Shown here one piece after another: positions 2,602 to 30,046 of a DNA stretch of 32,000 nucleotides (its first letter is position 1; every line of letters starts with the position of its first letter). The notes under the pieces were generated by a model, which was not told the DNA's origin, made no database searches, and worked only from the letters and a program-made list of their open reading frames with translations. A program made the position numbers and the translations under genes. This stretch comes from Okeania sp. (GTDB taxonomy: Bacteria > Cyanobacteriota > Cyanobacteriia > Cyanobacteriales > Microcoleaceae): assembly GCF_035285525.1 (NCBI RefSeq), contig NZ_JAYKGW010000183.1:1-32000 (forward strand). The letters are read 5' to 3'.

Positions 2602-2906
2602 AAAATTAAGGAATAAAAATAAAATTTTTTCTCTATTATAAATATATATAGCAATCCTATTTGATTTGTGTCAAAATTTTAGTTGCTTTTAACGAACAGA
2701 TAAAAAGCAACAGGTGGGAGTTTCAGAGTTGATTTCTATTTTTTTAGTTACTTAGGGTTATTATAGCAATCCTAAATAGCTTGTAAAATTTGAATGGGAA
2801 AATTGAGTATAAATTAATTATATATTTCTAATTAGGGAAAGAAAAGTTTTCCCAATCCTGACTATTTATTGATAATTTTAACTAGCAAACATCAACATAA
2901 AATTAA

Positions 2907-3156
2907 ATGACCAGACGACCGACGACCAATTTGCTAAACAATACCTCGAAAGAATGAGTTTCACCCTGTTGGTAAAGTCAGAATTAATCGAAAAGTTCCT
3001 GGAGAAGTTAGACAAATAGATATTTATTTTTCTCCAGCTTCAAAAACTCCTACTTCTAGCCTGAATTTAGGGGTATTAAGTCAAATATTATGCAGTAATT
3101 GTTTAATTAAAACATTTATAAATCAACCCAGCTTGATTGAAACAAGAAATTTATAA
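2907..3156 (+). pseudogene. Frameshifted remnant of a cyanobacterial PD-(D/E)XK (Rpn/YhgA-like) putative transposase/nuclease family gene
   Basis: Two frames give DDQFAKQYLE... and ...VPGEVRQIDIYFSPASKTPTSSLNLGVLSQILCSNCLIKTFINQPSLIETRNL*. This resembles the N-terminal nuclease core (E.rQ.D.yF.P) of a family common in Nostocales. The identification is from memory only. Confidence 0.25.
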
Positions 3157-3534
3157 GTTAATTTTACCTCTCTAATTATATAGATAATAGTTTTCGTAAC
3201 TATGAATATTTATAGCGTGGATAAATATCTAATTATATAAAATGAAATTGTTGTCAAACTTCATAATAAATGCACTATCCTAAATGCTAAGATTTTCGTC
3301 ATAAAAAAACATTTTTCGTAGGCAACAAAATCTGAACCTTCCCACAAGTGTAGGCATCAAAACTTTTTAATCTCATATTCCTAAAGTATATCAACTTCAA
3401 GTTAAATAACTATGTCTAAAAATGTATTTTAATGGTATGTGATTCAGACATAAAGCATTACATATTTACCAACGTAGAAAGTTTTTTCCTATATTTAGAA
3501 TGTCAGCATTTCCTGGGCAATAATTACGTGAAAA

Positions 3535-6695: not shown

Positions 6696-6875
6696 GAATT
6701 AAGAATTAATAGTTTGTAAGACTTTATCCAACGGGGTTTGCTTTCCAAATCTCTTAAAAGTTGGATTTGGAGACCAAACCCCTACAGTTTTTTCTCACAA
6801 ATAACTTCTTATGGTTATGTATATTTTTAGCATTGTATTAAGCCCAAATTTATAGAGAAATGGTGTTACATAGAC

Positions 6876-6900
6876 GTAGGTTGGGTTGAGGTACGAAACA
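6876..6900 (+). repeat. Truncated copy of the dispersed GTAGGTTGGGTTGAGGAACGAAACCCAACA element
   Basis: Matches the 5' part of the copies at 28591 and, in reverse complement, at 29475-29543. Confidence 0.7.
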
Positions 6901-7865: not shown

Positions 7866-8111
7866 AGCTTTAAAACTTCAGTCAAAACACAATTCTGAAA
7901 ATCAGATAATAATCTGAAACTTAGGGAGTAGAGAATAGTAATTTGGCAAATAGAAAAAAAGTCAAACAACTTTACTTCAATAAAAACAATTCTCAAAATT
8001 AGATAATAATCTGAAACTTAGGGAGTAGAGAATAGTAATTTGGGAAATAGAAAAAAAGTCAAACAACTTTACTTCAATAAAAACAATTCTGAAAATCAGA
8101 TAATAATCTGA
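7866..8111. repeat. Tandem repeat, period 97 bp, about 2.3-2.5 copies, 92 bp upstream of the TVP38-family gene
   Basis: The string ACAATTCTGAAAATCAGATAATAATCTGAAACTTAGGGAGTAGAGAATAGTAATTTGG.AAATAGAAAAAAAGTCAAACAACTTTACTTCAATAAAA recurs at 7889, 7986 and 8083. Each unit holds overlapping palindromes TCTGA-aaa-TCAGA and TCAGAT-aata-ATCTGA. Confidence 0.9.
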
Positions 8112-10238: not shown

Positions 10239-10304
10239 CTACTCCCTACTCCCTACTCCCTACTCCCTACTCCCTACTCCCTACTCCCTACTCCCTACTC
10301 CCTA
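10239..10304. repeat. STRR-like heptamer array (ACTCCCT)x9
   Basis: Nine perfect tandem copies from 10241 to 10303, just upstream of the HAD hydrolase start codon. Confidence 0.95.
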
Positions 10305-21763: not shown

Positions 21764-22789
21764 CTATTCCGCAGTTAAAACAATCCGATAACGAGCTTTG
21801 TTTGCTAATACCTTATCTATTGCTTCATTAATTTGAGAAATAGGCATAGTTTCAATCATTGGTTTAATTTGATGAACTGCTGCAAATTCTAACATTTCTG
21901 TCATAAAACTCCGACCACCAACTACACTACCAGCGACTGCTTTTTGCTCGAAAACTAAAGGTAATAAAGGTATATTTAAGGTGGAAACAGGAAGCCCAAG
22001 TAAACAGAAAACACCATTCTTAGCTAATAAACCAAAAGCTTTATCCCAATCAACTTCTGATGAAACAGTGCTAAGCAGTAAATCTACACTACTACTAGCT
22101 GCTGCGATTTCTTCTTCACTTTTCCAATTACAAAAATGATGCGCTCCAAATTCTTTGGCTTCTGCTTCTTTATCCGGTGAAGTAGAAAAAGCAGTCACCT
22201 CTGCTCCCATTGCTCTAGCAAATTTAATGGCTAAATGTCCTAATCCTCCTATTCCTATTACTCCTACTTTTGTGCCAGGATATTTGACATAGGTGCGCAG
22301 GGGAGTATAAACTGTGATTCCAGCACAAAGCAATGGTGCTGCACTTGCAGAATCTAAACCATCAGGTATTTTGTAGGCAAAATCAGCAGGAGCGCGTAAC
22401 TTGTCAGCAAACCCCCCATGATTTCCCACAATTAAACCTGTGTAACCTTTACGACAAACATTTTCTTCTCCTCGTAGACAAGCATCACAGACTCGGCAAG
22501 AATTACGAATCCAACCAAAACCGACGCGATCGCCAATTTTCAGAGAGGTTACATCTGCACCTACTTGAGTAACATTTCCGACTACTTCATGGCCAGCAAC
22601 TAGAGGAAAACTACTCACTTCCCAGTCATTGTCTCTCATGTGAATATCAGTATGGCATAAACCATTATGGGTGACTTGAATTTCTATGTCATTAGCACTT
22701 AAAGGCTTAGGTTCATATTCCCATTGTTTGAGTTTTTCACCTACTTTCAAAGATGCGTAGGCTGTAAATGTTTCAGTAGTGGACATCAT
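21764..22789 (-). CDS. Zn-dependent NAD(P) alcohol dehydrogenase (cinnamyl-alcohol dehydrogenase / YahK / AdhA-like MDR)
   Basis: 341 aa. GLCHTDIH, GHEVVG, structural-Zn Cys cluster C..C..C.......C, and Rossmann motif GIGGLGHLA. Confidence 0.9.
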   Translation of the reverse strand: MMSTTETFTAYASLKVGEKLKQWEYEPKPLSANDIEIQVTHNGLCHTDIHMRDNDWEVSSFPLVAGHEVVGNVTQVGADVTSLKIGDRVGFGWIRNSCRVCDACLRGEENVCRKGYTGLIVGNHGGFADKLRAPADFAYKIPDGLDSASAAPLLCAGITVYTPLRTYVKYPGTKVGVIGIGGLGHLAIKFARAMGAEVTAFSTSPDKEAEAKEFGAHHFCNWKSEEEIAAASSSVDLLLSTVSSEVDWDKAFGLLAKNGVFCLLGLPVSTLNIPLLPLVFEQKAVAGSVVGGRSFMTEMLEFAAVHQIKPMIETMPISQINEAIDKVLANKARYRIVLTAE

Positions 22790-23078
22790 AAGTTTCCGTG
22801 TGAAAAAATTATTACTATTTATATTAACTCTAGATGTTCCCTATCTCCCTAATATCACCTTCTTTAATTAAGGTTTGTTAAAAAAGTCTTTTTGCCCTTG
22901 GTAGGGAAGAGTTAGAAATAATGACTATTATACCAAACATTAAACTTTATATCATACTATAAAATAGTGAAAAAATAGCCCCATATTCACCATTCCCTCT
23001 ATCCACCTAATTTTATAGTTCCCAAAGCGATCGCCAACTTAAATAAATTGACTAGCATCATCAAAAATGGGTGAGTTT

Positions 23079-23225
23079 AAAAAATGTGTTAAATTTCCTG
23101 TTTGGGAATATAATTAGGGTAAATTTGTGAAAAAATTACAGATATACTGCTTTAGCTATTATTGAAGTTTTCTGCTGATTGAATTCAGTGTCGGTAACTA
23201 TTTATTATTTAAAGAAACTGTCACT
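23079..23225 (+). repeat. Decayed duplicate of the promoter, leader and first ~18 codons of the AAA-ATPase gene (partner copy 23476-23622, offset 397 bp)
   Basis: The two ~147-bp stretches are near-identical. In the upstream copy the start codon reads CTG instead of ATG and a stop follows after ..KETVTF. Confidence 0.85.
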
Positions 23226-23482
23226 TTTTAATTACTGAAAATATTCTTTAATCAGCAAAATTAACTTCTTTTATCAATTAACTCATCAGGATAGAAAAGT
23301 ACACCCTAATTAAACTATAAGAAACTACTAGGTGCTAAAGTATTCGGAGAAGTTAGTTAAAAACAGCCCAAATATTGTCTAAGATGGATTTGCTATAACC
23401 AAAACCCTGAACAGTAGGGCCGAATGACATTTCCTCCTAGTGTAGTCTAGCGAGCTGTAATTAGTTTCTACTTATAAAAAAT

Positions 23483-23511
23483 TTGTTAAATTTGCTATTT
23501 AGGAGTATAAT
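23483..23511 (+). promoter_or_regulatory. Sigma-70-type promoter for the AbiL-like operon
   Basis: TTGTTA (23483-23488), a 17-nt spacer, then TATAAT (23506-23511), about 57 nt upstream of ATG 23569. The duplicated copy has GTGTTA-17-TATAAT. Confidence 0.5.
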
Positions 23512-23568
23512 TAGGGTAAATTTGTGAAACAAACACAGATATACCACTTTAGCTATTCTTGAACTTTT

Positions 23569-24858
23569 ATGCTGATTGAATTCAGTGTCGGTAACTATTT
23601 ATCTTTTAAAGAAACTGTCACCTTGAGTATGGTGGCGACAAATGTTAGTGCCAAGAATAAAAGTGTTGATGAAAATAATGTTTTTGATGTTGATGAAGAG
23701 TTAAGTTTGCTCAAAAGTGTTGCTGTTTATGGTGCTAATGCTAGTGGCAAAAGTAATTTGATTAAAGCAATGGCTTTTATGCGTTGGTTTGTGCTTAATT
23801 CATCAAAAGAAACTCAGATAGAAGATGCTATTAATGTGGAAGAGTTTAAATTAAGTACGGAGACTGAGGGAAAGCCTTCTTATTTTGAAATAGTCTTTAT
23901 TTTAGAAAATAAATTATATAGATATGGTTTTGAAGTAGATGAAAAACAGGTTATTTCTGAGTGGTTATTTTATGTACCAAAAGTAAGAGAAAGTAAGTTA
24001 TTTGAACGGGATGAAAATGGTATCAAGATTCCTACTAAGATTTTTCAAGAAGGAAAATTAATCATAGATAAGACGAGAAATAATGCACTTTTTCTTTCTG
24101 TAAATGCTCAATTTAACGGCAAAATTTCTACAAGTATTTTGCGATGGTTTATGGATTTGAATATAATTTCAGGATTACATAGTGATTTATATAAAAGAGT
24201 TACAGTTCAATATTTTCAACAACATAGTGAATATAAAAACGAGATTATTCAATTTATTAGACAATGGGATTTAGGTATTGATAATATTGAAATTGACACA
24301 ATAAATATTTTACCAGAACAATTTTCTCAAATTTATTCAGAAGAATTTAGAAAACGTATGAGCGATGTAGGAGTGCAAGCTGATGAAATTCAAACATATC
24401 ATAAAAGATATGATTCTAAAGGTAAAATAGAATCTATAGTAATATTTGATTTTGAAGAAAATGAGTCAGATGGTACTCAAAAATTATTTGCTTTTGCAGT
24501 ACCAATTTTGCAGAGTTTAAAAAATGGAGAAATTTTAATAATAGATGAACTTGATGCTAGATTACATCCCATAATTAATCGTACAATAATCGAGCTATTT
24601 AACTCTAATCAAACTAATCCTAAAAATGCTCAACTAATTTTTACAAATCATGATACTAACTTACTTAATAGTAAGATGTTCAGATTAGACCAAATATGGT
24701 TTACAGAAAAAGATCGGCAAGGAGCAACCGATTTATATTCTTTAGTTGAATATGAAATTAAAAACGAAGAAATTTTTAAAGATGATTATATTAAAGGTAG
24801 ATATGGAGCAATACCTTTTCTTGGAGATTTAACCGAATTATTTGAAAAAAATGGGTAA
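23569..24858 (+). CDS. AAA_15/AAA_21 (ABC/SMC-like) ATPase, AbiLi/RloA-like defence component
   Basis: 429 aa. FSVGNYLSFKE N-terminus, Walker A GANASGKSN, Walker B/D-loop ILIIDELDARLHP, and a C-terminal ..IKGRYGAIP tail typical of this ATPase family. Overlaps the start of an RloB-domain gene. Confidence 0.8.
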   Translation: MLIEFSVGNYLSFKETVTLSMVATNVSAKNKSVDENNVFDVDEELSLLKSVAVYGANASGKSNLIKAMAFMRWFVLNSSKETQIEDAINVEEFKLSTETEGKPSYFEIVFILENKLYRYGFEVDEKQVISEWLFYVPKVRESKLFERDENGIKIPTKIFQEGKLIIDKTRNNALFLSVNAQFNGKISTSILRWFMDLNIISGLHSDLYKRVTVQYFQQHSEYKNEIIQFIRQWDLGIDNIEIDTINILPEQFSQIYSEEFRKRMSDVGVQADEIQTYHKRYDSKGKIESIVIFDFEENESDGTQKLFAFAVPILQSLKNGEILIIDELDARLHPIINRTIIELFNSNQTNPKNAQLIFTNHDTNLLNSKMFRLDQIWFTEKDRQGATDLYSLVEYEIKNEEIFKDDYIKGRYGAIPFLGDLTELFEKNG

Positions 24859-25501
24859 AAAAAAAGCATCTGGTAAAAATCATCAAAATTCTCGGAATGA
24901 GAAAAGTAAATATGCTCGCTCAAGAAATGAAAAAGTAAAAACACGAAAAGCAAAAGAGCGTTTTTTAATAGTTTGTGAGGGCACAAAAACTGAACCAAAT
25001 TATTTTAAAAGTTTTCCTGTTCCTAAAGATGTAATTGAAGTTGATGTACTAGGTGTTGGTAAAAATACGATTAATTTAGTTGAAAAAGCTCTAAGAATCA
25101 AACAAGAAGATGGTGATTACGATAGAGTTTGGTGTGTATTTGACAAAGATTCGTTTCCACCAAAAAATTTTAATGCAGCAATAAAATATGCCGAAGATAA
25201 TAATGTTGAAGTCGCATATTCTAATCAAGCTTTTGAAGTTTGGTACTTGTTACATTTTGACGATCCTTATATCCCAAAGTCTCGCAAAGACTATGAAAAA
25301 CTTTTAACTAAAAGGATGAATCAAAAGTATGAGAAAAATAGCAATGAAATGTACAAAATGTTGCTTGATAGACAACCTCAAGCAATTAAGAATGCAGAGA
25401 AGTTATTAAAACAATATAATCCACCTAATCCTGCTAATGATAATCCTTCCACAACAGTACATTTATTAGTTAAAGAACTGAATAGATTTGTTCGTAAATA
25501 A
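24851..25501 (+). CDS. RloB-domain protein (AbiLii-like), partner of the ATPase
   Basis: ERFLIVCEGTKTEPNYFKSF ... VWCVFDKDSF ... VAYSNQAFEVWYLLHF matches the RloB family signature. ATG 24851 overlaps the ATPase stop by 8 nt. The tracked ORF uses TTG 24842. An A9 run (24857-24865) lies in codons 3-5. Confidence 0.8.
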   Translation: MGKKKASGKNHQNSRNEKSKYARSRNEKVKTRKAKERFLIVCEGTKTEPNYFKSFPVPKDVIEVDVLGVGKNTINLVEKALRIKQEDGDYDRVWCVFDKDSFPPKNFNAAIKYAEDNNVEVAYSNQAFEVWYLLHFDDPYIPKSRKDYEKLLTKRMNQKYEKNSNEMYKMLLDRQPQAIKNAEKLLKQYNPPNPANDNPSTTVHLLVKELNRFVRK

Positions 25502-25596
25502 GTGTAGCGATCGCCTTTCTCATTATTCTCTCAATTCACTTAACATTTTCATTCTCTGAGAGCTACCTATAAAAAAAATTGGAAAGAAAATAAAGC

Positions 25597-25625
25597 TTGC
25601 ATTCTCGAATCAAATCTGATAGTAT
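25597..25625 (+). promoter_or_regulatory. Promoter-like element, repeat copy 1
   Basis: TTGCAT (25597-25602), a 17-nt spacer, then TAGTAT (25620-25625). Confidence 0.45.
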
Positions 25626-25631
25626 TATGTT

Positions 25632-25740
25632 ATTGGGGTAAACTCGCCTATATACTAGACTTTTTATTCAACTCAAGAAGTAAGGACGATTTCCCATAGG
25701 GAATGCTGCGACCCAATCGCGAATCGCCCCTAGATTTTTA
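25632..25740 (+). ncRNA. Candidate sRNA, unit 1 (~109 nt; predicted from promoter and terminator only)
   Basis: The predicted TSS is ~7 nt after TAGTAT. The terminator hairpin spans 25679-25733 (arms AGTAAGGACGATT / AATCGCCCCTAG) and is followed by ATTTTTA. No ORF. Confidence 0.3.
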
Positions 25741-25920
25741 CCGTGACTAAATTTGGCAATTTTAATAATGTCCGCTGGCACTACATTTATTAGTTAAAGA
25801 ACTGAATAGATTTGTTCGTAAATAAGTGTAGCGATCGCCTTTCTCATTATTCTCTCAATTCACTTAACATTTTCATTCTCTGAGAACTACCTATAAAAAA
25901 AATCGGAAAGAAAATAAAGC

Positions 25921-25949
25921 TTGCATTCTCCAACAAAATCTGATAGTAT
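25921..25949 (+). promoter_or_regulatory. Promoter-like element, repeat copy 2
   Basis: TTGCAT (25921-25926), a 17-nt spacer, then TAGTAT (25944-25949). Confidence 0.45.
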
Positions 25950-25955
25950 TATGTT

Positions 25956-26065
25956 ATTGGGGTAAACTCGCCTATACACTAGACTTTTTATTCAATAAAA
26001 GAAGTAGGGACGATTCGCGATTGGGTAGGAGCATTCCCGTTTGCGAAATCGCCCCTAGATTTTTA
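25956..26065 (+). ncRNA. Candidate sRNA, unit 2 (~110 nt)
   Basis: Same architecture as unit 1. The hairpin spans 26003-26058 and is followed by ATTTTTA. Confidence 0.3.
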
Positions 26066-26245
26066 CCGTGACTAAATTTGGCAATTTTAATAATGTCCGC
26101 TGGCACTACATTTATTAGTTCAACAACTGAACAGATTTGTTCGTAAATAAGTTGAGCGATCGCCTTTCTCACTATTCTCTCAATTCACTTAACATTTTCA
26201 TTCTCTGAGAGCTACCTGTCAAAAAAATCGGAAAGAAAATAAAGC

Positions 26246-26274
26246 TTGCATTCTCGAATCAAATCTGATAGTAT
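26246..26274 (+). promoter_or_regulatory. Promoter-like element, repeat copy 3
   Basis: TTGCAT (26246-26251), a 17-nt spacer, then TAGTAT (26269-26274). Confidence 0.45.
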
Positions 26275-26280
26275 TATGTT

Positions 26281-26368
26281 ATTGGGGAAAACTCGCCTAT
26301 ATGCTAGACTTTTTATTCAACACAAAAAGTAGGGACGTTTCATGGAACGTCCCTACTGTGGTTTATTC
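26281..26368 (+). ncRNA. Candidate sRNA, unit 3 (~87 nt)
   Basis: Same promoter. A perfect 12-bp stem, AGTAGGGACGTT (26328-26339) / AACGTCCCTACT (26346-26357), with a 6-nt loop, followed by GTGGTTTATT. Confidence 0.3.
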
Positions 26369-26414
26369 AAATGAAAATCGCTATAAGTCATCTAACGATT
26401 TATGGCTCAAAATA

Positions 26415-26780
26415 CTATCTAGCTACAGGAAGCAATAATTCGTTGGCGGGAGCGCCCCGTGAAACTTCTTCCCACTGGGGAGCGATGGGAGCGTATTTAC
26501 AATAACAGATGACGATGCGGGTATCGGTGTCAAAACTGGCAAACTTTTCGACCCGCGTTACTATCCAATCTCCTTCTCTGGCATGAGTAATAGCATCTTG
26601 GTCGTCAGTTTTATAGGCACGAGTACGATCGCCTATTTCGGGAATCGTCGGATTTTCTTCAGCGCTCCAGTTTTCTTCTAAAATGTCAGTTAGACTTTGA
26701 CGAGGCATCAGTATTCGTTCTTCCCATCCATGTTCGCTCATACCTTCTGTTTTATAAACTATCCAGGTTTCAGTTGTCAT
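26415..26780 (-). CDS. Hypothetical protein (121 aa from ATG 26780), third gene of a three-gene operon
   Basis: MTTETWIVYKTEGMSEHGWEERILMPRQ... GAGGA lies 8 nt upstream of ATG 26780, and the ATG overlaps the stop of the preceding gene by 11 nt. By eye the GC content is higher than the surroundings. No family confidently recognised. Confidence 0.6.
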   Translation of the reverse strand: MTTETWIVYKTEGMSEHGWEERILMPRQSLTDILEENWSAEENPTIPEIGDRTRAYKTDDQDAITHAREGDWIVTRVEKFASFDTDTRIVICYCKYAPIAPQWEEVSRGAPANELLLPVAR

Positions 26781-26949
26781 AGCGGTTATCCTCAAAAGTT
26801 GTTTGTTCTCCCTCAAAGACGCAATCGACTTTGAGGATTTTGTCTTTATTTGGGCGGACTTCTACAAGTTTCCAGCCATATTTCTGCTCCATCTCCCGAC
26901 ATTTTGCGGGATCGGTGGCAGAGTGAATATTTTTGCTATTTTTAGACAT
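26770..26949 (-). CDS. Hypothetical small protein (59 aa from ATG 26949), second gene of the operon
   Basis: MSKNSKNIHSATDPAKCREMEQKYGWKLVEVRPNKDKILKVDCVFEGEQTTFEDNRYDN. It starts 6 nt after the stop of the upstream gene and overlaps the downstream gene, which indicates translational coupling. Confidence 0.5.
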   Translation of the reverse strand: MSKNSKNIHSATDPAKCREMEQKYGWKLVEVRPNKDKILKVDCVFEGEQTTFEDNRYDN

Positions 26950-27637: not shown

Positions 27638-27835
27638 TCATAAAATGCGGCGATCGCTCACCCCATCTTTTACATCACATTCCCCAGAATTTTTACCTAA
27701 ATCCCAAATAGAAGGTGTTTTTTTGATGGTGGTAATAATAATTTTCCCATTTTCTTGAATAATGTCAAATTCTTGGTTTTCTCCTAACAATTCTTTAGGT
27801 ATTAATAAGCCTTCTTCTGTTGCTGTTAATTTCAT
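27638..27835 (-). CDS. AbrB/MazE/SpoVT-fold antitoxin (VapB-like), copy 1, without an intact toxin partner
   Basis: MKLTATEEGLLIPKELLGENQEFDIIQENGKIIITTIKKTPSIWDLGKN... is a paralogue of 29582-29794 and shares most residues with it. Confidence 0.65.
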   Translation of the reverse strand: MKLTATEEGLLIPKELLGENQEFDIIQENGKIIITTIKKTPSIWDLGKNSGECDVKDGVSDRRIL

Positions 27836-27902
27836 GTTTAATTACCTCAATTCATTTTGTAAATTAATTCATTAAAATCGCCCTATTTCAGAATGGCAAT
27901 AC

Positions 27903-28290
27903 TTATCCCAAATTTTCAATTTCCTGTAATACATCTACCAAAGTAGGAGCATTTGAGGAAATAACATTTTCTTGACTTCCATCATCTTTATGGTGGGGAA
28001 AATTTGGTAAGTTTAGCTTTTTATGATGTTCAGTATTGTCATAGCGGAAAATCAGATTATTTGAGGCAGTCATATATTGATAGGAATACATATCGCGCTC
28101 TATTGTTAATTCTAAATCTACAAATTTTCGCACCATTAAAACAGAATTATCTAGAAACTTTATTTCCCCTCGAATCATACCTTCGCGCATCACTTCTTTG
28201 AGAGGTTATAATCTGAAAATTTTGCACTATTTCACAAGCTACTATTAAGTCGTAAAGTTGTTGGAAGTAGTCTTCAAATAACAAATTCAA
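27903..28290 (-). pseudogene. TumE-family (DUF6516) toxin-like gene with a probable N-terminal frameshift near 28195-28205
   Basis: The 96-aa ORF contains ..IRGEIKFLDNSVL...DMYSYQYM....LIFRYDNTEHHKKLNLPNFPHHKDDGSQENVISSNAPTLVDVLQEIE, which is the TumE/DUF6516 signature. The expected N-terminus (LNLLFEDYFQQLYDLIVACEIVQNFQIITSQ) is in another frame. The total of 388 nt equals 129 codons plus 1. Confidence 0.55.
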
Positions 28291-28564
28291 TATCTCCCAA
28301 TTTTTATATCTTTTCTTCGAGTCGTTTCAACATCAAAGCTTCCCCTATCCATTCATCTAATTCTAATGTTTATTCAAATTCATCATTCTCATATCGAAGC
28401 AGAAATTCTTGAGTAGGTAACTGATATTTTTATTCAAATTATAAGAGTCTTTTTTTAGTTTGAGAAATTCCCGATTTCAGGGATTTTATCCTGTCAAACC
28501 TCATCTTTTCAATCATGTTTTTTAATGATTCTGGGTCTCGACATTTAATTTTTAGTTCTGGCAT
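28274..28564 (-). pseudogene. Partner gene of the TumE-like toxin (putative antitoxin) carrying four in-frame TAA codons and no frameshift
   Basis: MPELKIKCRDPESLKNMIEKMRFDRIKSLKSGISQTKKRLL*FE*KYQLPTQEFLLRYENDEFE*TLELDEWIGEALMLKRLEEKI*KLGDIEFVI*. An AAGGAG SD lies upstream of ATG 28564. The tracked ORF 28439-28621 borrows its N-terminus from a repeat element. Confidence 0.5.
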
Positions 28565-28590
28565 ATTTATTATCTCCTTTAAAAGTAATT

Positions 28591-28759
28591 GTAGGTTGGG
28601 TTGAGGAACGAAACCCAACAATAGAAATCTCCATAAAAGAGGAAATAGGGAAGAATAATTGATAATTTATGGATAAAAATTGATTCTACTTTTTATTTTT
28701 GGAAATTTCTAATAGTAAAGCTTTGTTGGGTTGAACGATAGTGAAACCGAACTTACGGC
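28591..28759. repeat. Dispersed element GTAGGTTGGGTTGAGGAACGAAACCCAACA...TTGGGTT...ACGGC, interrupted by a nested MITE
   Basis: The left part (28591-28620) and right part (28712-28759) match the uninterrupted, reverse-oriented copy at 29475-29543. Confidence 0.7.
28622..28711. mobile_element. 90-bp MITE (TIR TAGAAATCTCCATAAAA / TTTTTGGAAATTTCTA) nested inside the element above
   Basis: It belongs to the same family as 29826-29938, with a shared core GGGAAGAATAATTGATAATTTATGGATAAAAATTGATTCTACTTTTTATTTTTGGA. Confidence 0.7.
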
Positions 28760-28804
28760 TGATAACTGATAACTTTTTAGTTAGGTTAGTAACTATATCA
28801 ATTA

Positions 28805-29215
28805 TCATGGTAACATTTTAAAGCCAGCTTGAAAAAAATGGTTATCTAAAGTTAAAGCTGTAACTATCTTTCGTTGTTTCATAATTATAAATGATAAACA
28901 ATGAGTTAGAGAATAGGATTTATCTTGATGCTTTTGAAAATATTGCCATCCTTAATTAAATAGATTTTGATCGATATTAATCAATTCTATCTCAGGACTT
29001 TCTAATAGTTGATTACCAACTTCCACTGCTTTATAATGAAGGTTTCTACTATTGAAGAAAGTTACAACTTCATCAAAAATATACGTTGTTGTTACTAAAA
29101 AAGGCTTAGATTTTACTAAAAAATTCCAATTTTCTAATACTTGTTGATGAGCGTCTTCACTTTTGATTTCTAGAGCCAAAATATAGCTAGTATCCAAAAA
29201 ATAGATTTCTTTCAT
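28805..29215 (-). pseudogene. PIN-domain VapC toxin with in-frame TAA at 28952-28954
   Basis: MKEIYFLDTSYILALE...FDEVVTFF...LFN*GWQYFQKHQDKSYSLTHCLSFIIMKQRKIVTALTLDNHFFQAGFKMLP*. The PIN acidic residues are present and the frame is preserved through the stop. Confidence 0.65.
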
Positions 29216-29295
29216 TGTTGATTATAAAGATAACGGTCGTGATTAATTGCGCCATCGTTTACATCGCATTCCACAGGTGTTGCTGTTAATTTCAC
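29212..29295 (-). pseudogene. Internally deleted VapB (AbrB-type) antitoxin remnant, ATG changed to GTG
   Basis: VKLTAT|PVECDVNDGAINHDRYLYNQQ* retains only the first 6 and last ~21 codons of the paralogues. Its TGA overlaps the VapC ATG (ATGA). Confidence 0.6.
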
Positions 29296-29474
29296 GTTTA
29301 ATTACCTCAATTAATTTTGTATATTAATTCATTAAATAGAAGCGATCGCCAATTAAAAAATTAAAATAATCGCCAACTGATAACTGATTTTATGGTTCAA
29401 TCCAGTCTTCACAAGCTGCAATTAAAATATTAGCAACTCGATTATCGAGAGCTTCTTTGAACGCTTCTGTCTTC

Positions 29475-29543
29475 CGCGTAGCGGTACGATAGTGAAACCC
29501 AACCAAACCCTACTGTTGGGTTTCGTTCCTCAACCCAACCTAC
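29475..29543. repeat. Uninterrupted copy (reverse orientation) of the GTAGGTTGGGTTGAGGAACGAAACCCAACA element
   Basis: CGCGTAGCGGTACGATAGTGAAACCCAACCAAACCCTACTGTTGGGTTTCGTTCCTCAACCCAACCTAC. It truncates a VapC paralogue after codon 14. Confidence 0.7.
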
Positions 29544-29585
29544 GGCTAAAGTATAGCTAGTATCCAAAAAATAGACTTCTTTCAT
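29544..29585 (-). pseudogene. 5' stub (14 codons) of a second VapC PIN toxin gene
   Basis: MKEVYFLDTSYTLA.. is almost identical to the start of 28805-29215. The rest has been replaced by the repeat element. Confidence 0.6.
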
Positions 29586-29794
29586 TGTTGATTATACAGA
29601 TAACGGTTGCGATCGCTAACCCCATCTTTTACATTAAATTCCACAGGATTTTTACCTAAATCCCAAATAGAAAGTGTTTTTTTGATGCTGGTAATAATAA
29701 TTTTTCCATTTTCTTGAATAATCTCAAACTCTTGGCTTTCTCCTAATAATTCTTTAGGTATTAATAAGCCTTGTTCTGTTGCTGTTAATTTCAT
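29582..29794 (-). CDS. AbrB/MazE/SpoVT-fold antitoxin (VapB-like), copy 3, intact
   Basis: MKLTATEQGLLIPKELLGESQEFEIIQENGKIIITSIKKTLSIWDLGKNPVEFNVKDGVSDRNRYLYNQQ. Its stop overlaps the ATG of the VapC stub (ATGA). Confidence 0.7.
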   Translation of the reverse strand: MKLTATEQGLLIPKELLGESQEFEIIQENGKIIITSIKKTLSIWDLGKNPVEFNVKDGVSDRNRYLYNQQ

Positions 29795-29825
29795 ATTTAA
29801 TTACCTCAATTAATTTTGTAGATTA

Positions 29826-29938
29826 ATAGACATCTCCAGAAAAGAGGGAACGCTTAACACAACCGCGCTTAACTGGGAAGAAGAATTGATAATTTATAGA
29901 TAATAATTGATTTTACTTTTTATTTTTGGAGATGTCTA
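29826..29938. mobile_element. 113-bp MITE with perfect TIR TAGACATCTCCAGAAAA / TTTTTGGAGATGTCTA, inserted in the conserved vapB upstream leader
   Basis: The two other vapB upstream regions read ..TTTTGTA.ATTAATTCATTAAA.. without interruption (27858-27880 and 29316-29338). Here the same string is split at TAAT, so a TSD of 2-4 nt is possible. The element carries an extra ~30-nt insert (GAACGCTTAACACAACCGCGCTTAACT) that the 28622 copy lacks. Confidence 0.75.
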
Positions 29939-30046
29939 ATTCATTAAAATTACTATATTTCAAAATTGCCATGCTTATGCTATCTTTAAACACTATAGAT
30001 TGGGCGCTGCGTTACACTCCGTTAACGCATCCTAGTGGGCTGAAAA

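Follow-up and report, generated by a model that had tools for sequence, protein, structure and literature searches.

Organization of the AbiL locus and its downstream array

In a 32,000-nucleotide (nt) stretch of the Okeania sp. genome (NCBI RefSeq assembly GCF_035285525.1, contig NZ_JAYKGW010000183.1, positions 1 to 32,000 of the forward strand; hereafter the window), a two-gene AbiL abortive-infection operon is followed, on the same strand, by a tandem array of repeat units, each of which opens with the end of the operon's second gene and holds a promoter-like motif. The first gene, AbiLi (23569-24858, plus strand), encodes an ABC/SMC-type ATPase of 429 amino acids (aa) (Pfam AAA_21, 4.7e-47; PADLOC AbiLi, 4.9e-103) whose second PADLOC match is AriA (1.9e-43); the second, AbiLii or RloB (24842-25501, plus strand), encodes a Toprim/OLD-type protein (Pfam RloB, 1.9e-49; PADLOC AbiLii, 8.2e-35). 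An AbiLi ATPase gene followed by an AbiLii RloB/Toprim gene, the two overlapping at 24842-24858, is the arrangement of an AbiL system. The database protein P0001 ('RloB family protein [Okeania sp.]') is 100% identical to the RloB of the window, with its start at the ATG at 24851. With confidence a little better than even, the array is read here as a locally amplified 3′ flank of the AbiL operon that carries a conserved candidate small-RNA gene.

Tandem Repeats Finder (TRF) places the array at 25458-26341 of the window, with a period of 325, 2.7 copies, 92% matches and a score of 1505, and a repeat search gives start-to-start distances of 324 and 325 between the copies, which are alignable from 25458, 25782 and 26107. 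By BLASTN, copies 1 and 2 are 92.0% identical over the whole unit and copies 1 and 3 are 93.6% identical over 234 nt; copy 3 is incomplete, its homology to copies 1 and 2 ending within the hairpin, near 26341. An earlier note on this DNA had described three tandem 324-bp units, each beginning with the end of an RloB gene. The array is real and the three starting points stand, with the corrections that the third copy is partial and the spacing is 324/325 bp; the RloB beginning is confirmed throughout, the last 44 nt of the gene opening every unit, identical in copies 1 and 2 and with three differences in copy 3.

The unit is a six-piece patchwork made up of the 44-nt RloB tail, a HIP1 site (GCGATCGC) 5 nt past the RloB stop codon, a spacer of ~60 nt, a core module of ~105 nt, a hairpin and, in units 1 and 2 only, a 46-nt filler segment, Y. 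On the plus strand, unit 1 (25458-25781) comprises the real RloB tail (25458-25501), HIP1 (25507-25514), the spacer, the core module, an insert-bearing hairpin and filler Y. Unit 2 (25782-26106, plus strand) has an orphan RloB tail at 25782-25825, HIP1 at 25831-25838, the core module, a hairpin that carries its insert the other way round from unit 1, and filler Y; the incomplete unit 3 (26107-26367, plus strand) has a diverged orphan tail at 26107-26150, HIP1 at 26156-26163, the core module and a hairpin that is a clean palindrome. No open reading frame (ORF) of at least 30 aa is common to the units on either strand, in agreement with the ORF-free stretch of ~50 nt that had been remarked upon in each copy.

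The core module and its promoter-like motif

Against 0.00 expected, TTGCAT-N14-TG-N-TAGTAT has exactly three instances in the window (25597-25625, 25921-25949 and 26246-26274), which bears out the TTGCAT-17 nt-TAGTAT pair reported earlier for each copy and adds to it a TGn extension. TTGCAT, the 17-nt spacer and TGnTAGTAT are unchanged in all six distinct copies, from four lineages, and together constitute a predicted promoter. In copy 1 (25578-25680, plus strand), as delimited by alignment with the related loci L001, L002 and L007, the core module consists of an A-rich block, a -35 box TTGCAT (25597-25602), the TG dinucleotide (25617-25618), a -10 box TAGTAT (25620-25625), a predicted start near A25632 and a conserved non-coding 5′ segment of ~45 nt that ends in CTAGACTTTTTATTCAAC, after which an A-run follows. 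The corresponding elements lie at 25921-25926 (-35), 25944-25949 (-10) and near 25956 (predicted start) in copy 2 (25902-26004, plus strand), and at 26246-26251, 26269-26274 and near 26281 in copy 3 (26227-26329, plus strand). In all lineages the module is bounded on the left by HIP1; its right edge, after TTATTCAAC...AAAAAGT, is sharp and common to all copies.

The module resembles no catalogued RNA: a cmscan search of the whole window against Rfam 15 (E up to 1) returned five weak hits, none of them in 25000-26500, and ARAGORN found neither a tRNA nor a tmRNA, the module not being tRNA-like. The block GACUUUUUAUUC may resemble the anticodon arm of tRNA-Lys; it does not fold as a stem-loop. 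LexA-box and NtcA-box readings of the invariant block were checked by eye and neither fits, and the idea that the module is a homologue of the AbiLi promoter and leader, marking the start of a lost downstream operon, was dropped on account of an unconvincing alignment.

Distribution and conservation in related loci

An exact 22-mer spanning the -10 box occurs in one contig (L001, from a cyanobacterial metagenome-assembled genome, MAG) among 185,579 species genomes, and an exact 20-mer in one metagenome contig (L002); exact-word scans of this kind miss diverged copies. The contexts of eight RloB proteins, 69-77% identical, were compared by BLASTN. In L006, L007 and L008, which represent the same locus (P0003), the module lies behind an intact RloB, 76% identical, at the same distance past the stop codon; in L002 it follows an RloB fragment (residues 144-219), AbiLi being deleted; in L001 there is no RloB within 8 kb, and the module stands between an FGE-sulfatase-like fragment and a CobW-like gene. 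Behind the intact RloB genes of L003, L004/L005 (from the MAG of L001), L009-L011, L012/L013, L014 and L015 the module is absent, and homology to the window ends at or before HIP1. The module is single-copy in all three other lineages that carry it and is never repeated outside the window. An nhmmer profile search of the window and 15 loci (105 kb) yielded no copies beyond those already known, and a search of the protein collection for copies betrayed by spurious ORF calls gave no matches. Between identical flanks, L007 has ~195 nt, from HIP1 to TTTTTGCGA, where L012 has 8 nt; the module is thus a discrete unit that is either present or absent.

Within the aligned stretch, identity is unevenly distributed. 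Compared with L007, copy 1 is identical at 39/61 positions of the spacer, 26/29 of the promoter, 5/5 between the -10 box and +1, 36/42 from +1 to +42 and 10/27 beyond the module; the corresponding figures for L001 are 34/64, 24/29, 5/5, 38/42 and 8/27. Across lineages, the core is about 83-93% identical, as against 53-64% in the adjoining spacer, and between the window and L006 the AbiL genes show 79-95% identity per 100 nt of coding DNA. With its flank decaying, the core has thus been preserved as well as protein-coding DNA, an argument for purifying selection. Every frame of the core, on both strands, contains stops in at least one lineage, and a translated search with the open plus-strand frame of the core found no matches. 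On this evidence the module is a predicted non-coding element whose sequence is conserved beyond the neutral level.

One part of the module departs from this pattern. Between L002 (1134-1157) and L007 (816-839), whose non-coding DNA is nearly the same elsewhere, a stretch corresponding to predicted positions +3 to +26 holds six substitutions in 24 nt, as against five in the other ~355 nt, and this variable patch is flanked by the invariant blocks TCTGATAGTATTATGTTATTGG and CTAGAyTTTTTATTCAA. The cluster could reflect gene conversion, a relaxed linker or diversifying selection.

Hairpins and filler

A hairpin follows the core module in all three units, the three differing in make-up and in predicted stability. 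Hairpin 1 (25676-25739, plus strand; -14.5 kcal/mol, z = -1.1), followed by AUUUUUA, has an outer stem that resembles the copy-3 palindrome and an insert of ~31 nt in its loop. Hairpin 2 (26005-26057, plus strand; -25.8 kcal/mol, z = -3.4), followed by AGAUUUUUA, is the hairpin-1 element with the insert reversed. Hairpin 3 (26328-26357, assigned to neither strand; -20.9 kcal/mol, z = -5.0) has the form of a two-way terminator, being a 13-bp palindrome (AGTAGGGACGTTTCATGGAACGTCCCTACT); it alone scored terminator-like in the terminator scan, on both strands, and it probably also terminates the convergent ORF at 26415-26816 (minus strand). The earlier claim of an intrinsic terminator in each unit holds insofar as all three have a hairpin; only that of copy 3 is terminator-like, that of copy 2 folds well, that of copy 1 is weak on the plus strand, and the terminators are not conserved.

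The ~31-nt loop insert is inverted between units 1 and 2 (25699-25739 vs 25998-26038, 85% complementary), the stem arms being unmoved. This flip explains why hairpin 1 is a good fold on the minus strand only, where the stretch that spans it (25680-25745) reaches -21.3 kcal/mol (z = -2.7). The inversion is, as far as the alignment of the two units can tell, a hairpin-loop flip that would have followed duplication.

The copy-3 palindrome AGTAGGGACGTTTCATGGAACGTCCCTACT, together with ~40 nt of flank, is a dispersed element with copies in L002, L004, L005, L006 and L014, mostly immediately ahead of AbiLi in the related loci; besides window 26328-26357, it lies at L004 2509-2579 and 7952-7981, L006 1512-1582, L014 511-576 and L002 741-775. 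The hairpins of the window units are not homologous to the sequence that follows the module in L001, L002 and L007. By this comparison the hairpins are not part of the module and derive from the dispersed palindrome. Filler Y (25736-25781, plus strand, repeated at 26060-26106) is like an intergenic piece between DUF433 and DUF5615 in L007 and L008: unit positions 279-316 match L007 2172-2209 and L008 2239-2276 at 89% by BLASTN.

Origin of the array and turnover of the AbiL cassette

The junction between filler Y and the following RloB tail is identical in units 1/2 and 2/3, copy 3 lacking both insert and Y; the identity indicates that the junction was formed once and then copied. Four steps would account for the array. 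The segment that begins with the last 44 nt of RloB and extends to the nearest downstream hairpin would have been duplicated in tandem; ~90 nt of filler, comprising the hairpin-loop insert and a scrap of another intergenic region, would have been captured at the junction; a second duplication would have copied the whole unit, junction included; and point changes amounting to 4-8%, along with the flip of the hairpin insert, would have come afterwards. Even where the encoded proteins are only ~70% identical, the final ~45 nt of RloB show 87-95% identity between operons, and this conserved gene end offers a ready substrate for unequal exchange exactly at the unit start. Outside the window the module is single-copy, and these genomes abound in long tandem repeats; the tripling looks like an ordinary local duplication, a lineage-specific accident.

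The tail of copy 3 bears a Q codon (VQQL) that is the allele of most related RloB genes (VKQL in L002, L003, L004, L007 and L012), so that copy 3 was not newly copied from the live gene end and represents either an older copy or another allele. In part this confirms the view, put forward earlier, that the module had travelled with the ends of AbiL operons rather than arising by one recent local duplication. The tail of copy 3, older or from another allele, and the RloB context of the module in a second lineage fit that view, whereas the array itself looks like the product of local duplication.

Just upstream of the live operon lies the ghost of a second, tandem AbiL operon (23041-23271, plus strand), in which an AbiLi promoter, leader and ~19 codons, with the ATG changed to CTG (23041-23227), are fused to the alternative type of RloB 3′ flank found in L003, L004 and L014 (23228-23271). 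In the repeat search, 23078-23227 is 89% identical to 23475-23624, and BLASTN matches the ghost to L003 2582-2765 and 4687-4720 and to L014 2675-2719. Its structure implies a tandem copy of the AbiL operon that would have suffered an internal deletion of ~1.9 kb. HIP1, with 14 occurrences in the window against 0.05 expected, lies at the left edge of the ghost (23027-23034) as well as of a 219-nt repeat pair (27650, 29609), and HIP1 sites coincide exactly with several homology breakpoints (23027, 25507, 25831, 26156, 27650 and 29609). The locus thereby displays the turnover of a defence island, with a live AbiL operon beside an internally deleted one, alternative 3′ flanks joined at HIP1 and the duplication of a gene end in three steps.

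The module as a candidate small-RNA gene

On the favoured reading, each module would be a small-RNA gene, transcribed in the same direction as the operon from the predicted starts at or near A25632, A25956 and A26281. Transcription would stop at whichever hairpin lies downstream, to give RNAs of ~85-110 nt whose conserved 5′ part, the ~45 nt of the core ending in a weak AU hairpin, would be largely without structure; such an RNA might act by base pairing in trans. The sequence of module 1 would double as the 3′ untranslated region (UTR) of the AbiL operon. Triplication would raise the dosage of the RNA, though not as part of a design.

Several observations weigh against this reading. Conservation includes DNA upstream of the -35 box and is not confined to the part predicted to be transcribed, and a DNA-level site, whether for protein binding or for recombination, would fit the conservation of the core equally well. 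The hexamers match the sigma-70 consensus at only 7/12 positions, so that the argument for a promoter draws on conservation and on the TGn-extended -10 box rather than on consensus strength; they are also absent from the promoter-scan list, a scan that is weakly informative either way, with 22 sites listed and 18.8 expected. No compensatory change is found in the 11 base pairs predicted by RNAalifold (covariation term -0.06 kcal/mol), and the consensus fold of +1 to +59 amounts to -4.3 kcal/mol in two weak hairpins (+3 to +19 and +28 to +50). The terminators differ in every lineage, and none is found near the module of L001. Only four lineages make up the module family as known, the collection scans being confined to exact 20- to 22-mers. 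Finally, the copies of the array differ by 4-8%; the duplications were therefore not very recent, and this could mean that the array as such has been kept by selection. The small-RNA-gene anatomy proposed in the earlier note is accordingly upheld in its general shape, its conserved core and its want of a conserved ORF, and not in its structure, which lacks covariation, or in its terminators, which are not conserved.

Alternative explanations and the link to AbiL

The array may instead be a functionless recombination scar, the debris of gain, loss and unequal crossing-over of AbiL cassettes, in which the likeness between lineages would stem from recent horizontal spread of the cassette end. Much of the architecture would suit such an origin: the unit is a patchwork of RloB tail, HIP1, dispersed palindrome, flipped insert and DUF433/DUF5615 intergenic scrap; the ghost operon adjoins it; HIP1 sites mark the ends of homology blocks; base pairs show no covariation; and long tandem repeats are frequent in these genomes, as the 97-nt repeat of the window, two arrays in L009-L011 and a 313-nt repeat in L001 illustrate. 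Yet a core that is 86-93% identical next to a spacer at 53-64% within one stretch is unlike either uniform neutral decay or a single recent transfer, and in L001 the core has been kept after the loss of its RloB context. We therefore consider a mere scar unlikely, and the conserved candidate small-RNA gene remains the preferred reading of the core.

A second possibility gives the module a role in defence, as a dedicated RNA component of this AbiL subtype (antitoxin-like, decoy or regulatory) that would bind AbiLi or RloB or pair with their mRNA, three copies being kept for dose. Among closely related AbiL operons (at least 69% RloB identity), the module lies behind the RloB 3′ end in two of eight, to which the remnant in L002 may be added; the six others (P0002, P0005, P0006, P0009, P0010 and P0019) are free of it. 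In favour of an RNA component, two intact-operon lineages and one remnant have the module directly behind the RloB 3′ end, with strand and distance unchanged; the MAG that holds the module in a housekeeping context (L001) has an AbiL operon (L004) on a different contig, so that action in trans is conceivable; the +3 to +26 segment is unusually variable between invariant blocks; and related ATPase + Toprim systems act on RNA (PMC12409363, PMC12445682). Against it stand not only the six operons that do without the module but also its single-copy state wherever else it is present and its retention in L002 despite the deletion of AbiLi and most of RloB. Pairing between the 5′ part of the RNA and its own operon, suggested in the earlier note, fared no better than chance: the observed energy was reached by 31 and 44 of 100 shuffles for the window and by 3 of 100 for L006, and a 20/22 antisense match to the 3′ region of AbiLi in L006 (2888-2909) is lost in the window. 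Antisense pairing with the operon was accordingly rejected, the duplex of the window not rising above shuffles and the match of L006 not being conserved. A dedicated component of this kind is rather improbable.

In its most specific form, which is slightly more doubtful still, the module would be an RNA partner, the first for a defence system of the ATPase + Toprim (AbiL/PARIS) class, restraining or tuning the RloB nuclease, for instance as a substrate mimic or decoy, with +3 to +26 evolving along with its target and with possible action in trans in the MAG of L001 and L004. This proposal rests on adjacency in two of eight operons, on the clustered substitutions and on the cutting of tRNAs by related Toprim effectors. 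An RNA component of AbiL/PARIS-class systems, if true, would be of consequence for the biology of phage defence; it has little support at present. A functional partnership between AbiL and the RNA is unsupported, and shared descent, together with recombination between operon ends, best accounts for the association of the two. Of the links to AbiL first proposed, the co-occurrence of the unit with RloB survives in part, since the module follows RloB in L006-L008 and in the remnant of L002, while it is absent from six of eight operons and is once found far from RloB; the array as an AbiL-attached feature does not survive, the module being single-copy everywhere outside the window. The converse possibility, that the unit is a generic dispersed repeat, is improbable, with no extra copies in the 105 kb of window and loci, though once (L001) the module occurs without a link to RloB.

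The module could also be a non-autonomous small element, mobile or of the cassette type, ~195 nt long, with HIP1 as its boundary and an outward promoter, that inserts into 3′ flanks, the array having arisen by repeated insertion or recombination. Its presence in L007 and absence from L012 between the same flanks, its occurrence at the unrelated L001 locus with HIP1 on both sides, and the sharp right edge common to all copies would agree with mobility. However, reading the ends in L007 and L012 revealed neither terminal inverted repeats nor a target-site duplication, copy number is very low (the exact 22-mer in one contig among 185,579 genomes, the 20-mer in one metagenome contig and nothing further in 105 kb), and the identity of both array junctions points to growth by duplication and not by separate insertions. 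Mobility is for these reasons quite improbable as an account of the array, which is still best read as an amplified operon flank with a candidate small-RNA gene.

A small protein gene, starting at the ATG beside the -10 box (MLLG...) or lying on the opposite strand, is scarcely credible and was rejected: gene callers do mark a 58-aa ORF at this ATG in L007 and L008, and L002 has a 75-aa ORF in the same frame, but a stop closes this frame after 4 codons in copies 1 and 2, 18 codons in copy 3 and 16 codons in L001, no homologue of the 58-aa product of L007 turned up among 5.8 billion clusters, every difference (6/6) between L002 and L007 where the two share the frame alters the amino acid, the translated search found no match, and the ATG, 1 nt past the -10 hexamer, lies upstream of any start from that promoter.

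Other features of the window and of related loci

The AbiL operon (window 23600-25600) has a G+C content of 26-31%, compared with ~40% in the adjoining alcohol-dehydrogenase gene (22000-22800), which is consistent with a horizontally acquired defence island. BLASTN against PLSDB gave no match that would indicate a plasmid origin, and three exact-block scans of IMG/VR gave none that would indicate a phage origin.

Repeats of other kinds are scattered over the window. A 97-nt tandem repeat (2.4 copies, 94%) occupies another intergenic region at 7875-8111. Duplicated small-gene cassettes cluster at 27650-29940, with a TumE-toxin-like ORF (27903-28193, minus strand), partners starting MPELKIKC and several repeat pairs. 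A palindrome of the miniature inverted-repeat transposable element (MITE) type, GTAGGTTGGGTTGAGGAACGAAACCCAAC, is present at 28591-28624, 29510-29543 and 6871-6899, and the same element is also found in L001. The heptamer CTACTCC is repeated 9.4 times at 10239-10304, and intergenic DNA holds many runs of TAATTAT-type heptamers; heptamer runs in intergenic DNA are typical of the repeat-rich genomes of filamentous cyanobacteria.

In the related loci, a different tandem array, with periods of 66, 86 and 152 nt, begins ~45 nt past the RloB stop at L009 3688-4247 (also in L010 and L011), a lineage in which AbiLi is truncated to 89-124 aa; a further array, with periods of 127 and 404 nt, lies at L009 5596-6518. 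In L001, a 313-nt tandem repeat (2745-3479; 2.3 copies, 92%) holds the 3′ end of the CobW-like gene (1942-2988) and adjoins the single copy of the module; it is a second case of the tandem duplication of a gene end together with its flank.

Comparison with known systems

The genes beside the array belong with ATPase + Toprim defence. AbiL and PARIS are grouped under this heading in a review (PMC13064643), and AriB of PARIS and P2 Old cut tRNAs (PMC12409363, PMC12445682). The AbiL proteins that flank the array fall in the same broad ATPase + Toprim/OLD class as PARIS and P2 Old; the latter act on tRNAs, whereas the Okeania module is not tRNA-like by ARAGORN. To our knowledge, no host-encoded RNA partner has been described for PARIS or P2 Old.

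The type III antitoxins ToxI and AntiQ consist of ~35-nt repeats upstream of a toxin gene; they are co-transcribed with it, neutralise the toxin by binding it directly and are cut by an endoribonuclease of the ToxN/AbiQ fold. The Okeania array shares with them the presence of repeated non-coding DNA adjoining an abortive-infection gene. By comparison, its units measure 324/325 nt, lie downstream of both genes and have their own promoter-like site, and Pfam and PADLOC identify no ToxN/AbiQ partner, the neighbours being an ABC ATPase and RloB/Toprim. The likeness drawn in the earlier note is thus one of shape only, repeat size, position and type of toxin all being different.

Small RNAs of the DapZ/MicL type are encoded by single-copy enterobacterial genes located in mRNA 3′ regions, with their own promoter and proven Hfq-dependent targets. 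As in these cases, the predicted promoter of the Okeania module lies within or just beyond the end of the gene upstream and has the same orientation, and the predicted small RNA and the AbiL mRNA would share a terminator, because there is none between the RloB stop and module 1. Unlike these single-copy genes, the module is present in three copies and is predicted from sequence.

Tandem units that each combine a promoter, a terminator and a short non-coding RNA are reportedly found in the NsiR1 arrays of heterocystous cyanobacteria (Ionescu et al. 2010, cited in the earlier note). NsiR1 has the heterocyst-specific DIF motif TCCGGA near -35 and its array is located upstream of hetF; Okeania, a marine cyanobacterium, is a non-heterocystous member of the Microcoleaceae. 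In contrast to NsiR1, the -35 region of the module reads TTGCAT and not TCCGGA, the neighbours are AbiL genes and not hetF, there is no match in Rfam, the host forms no heterocysts and the module is single-copy in relatives. Here too, the parallel suggested at the outset comes down to shape: Rfam gives no match, the DIF motif is missing and the host is non-heterocystous.

Trichodesmium is closely related to Okeania, and a tandem array in its genome is, by analogy, the closest known parallel. Pfreundt et al. 2014 (PMC4143802) describe in Trichodesmium erythraeum IMS101 (genome positions 103000-110200) an array of seven tandem units that gives rise to the cell's most abundant non-coding RNA (ncRNA); every unit includes a duplicate of the adjacent gene's 3′ part and a transcription start of its own. 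Both arrays consist of long non-coding tandem repeats, each with the 3′ part of an adjacent gene, here 44 nt of RloB; the Trichodesmium units are longer (736-973 bp, with an ncRNA of ~260 nt) and carry the gene fragments on the strand opposite the ncRNA, whereas the Okeania units, of 324/325 bp, are known from DNA alone. Arrays of this kind, tandem non-coding repeat units with promoters of their own, here predicted, are already known in the Trichodesmium/Okeania lineage. The genomes of these cyanobacteria are unusually rich in non-coding DNA, in which telling gene repeats from debris is a practical problem; if transcribed, the Okeania array would provide a second case beside the one expressed tandem-repeat array of Trichodesmium, with a defined conserved core of ~105 nt.

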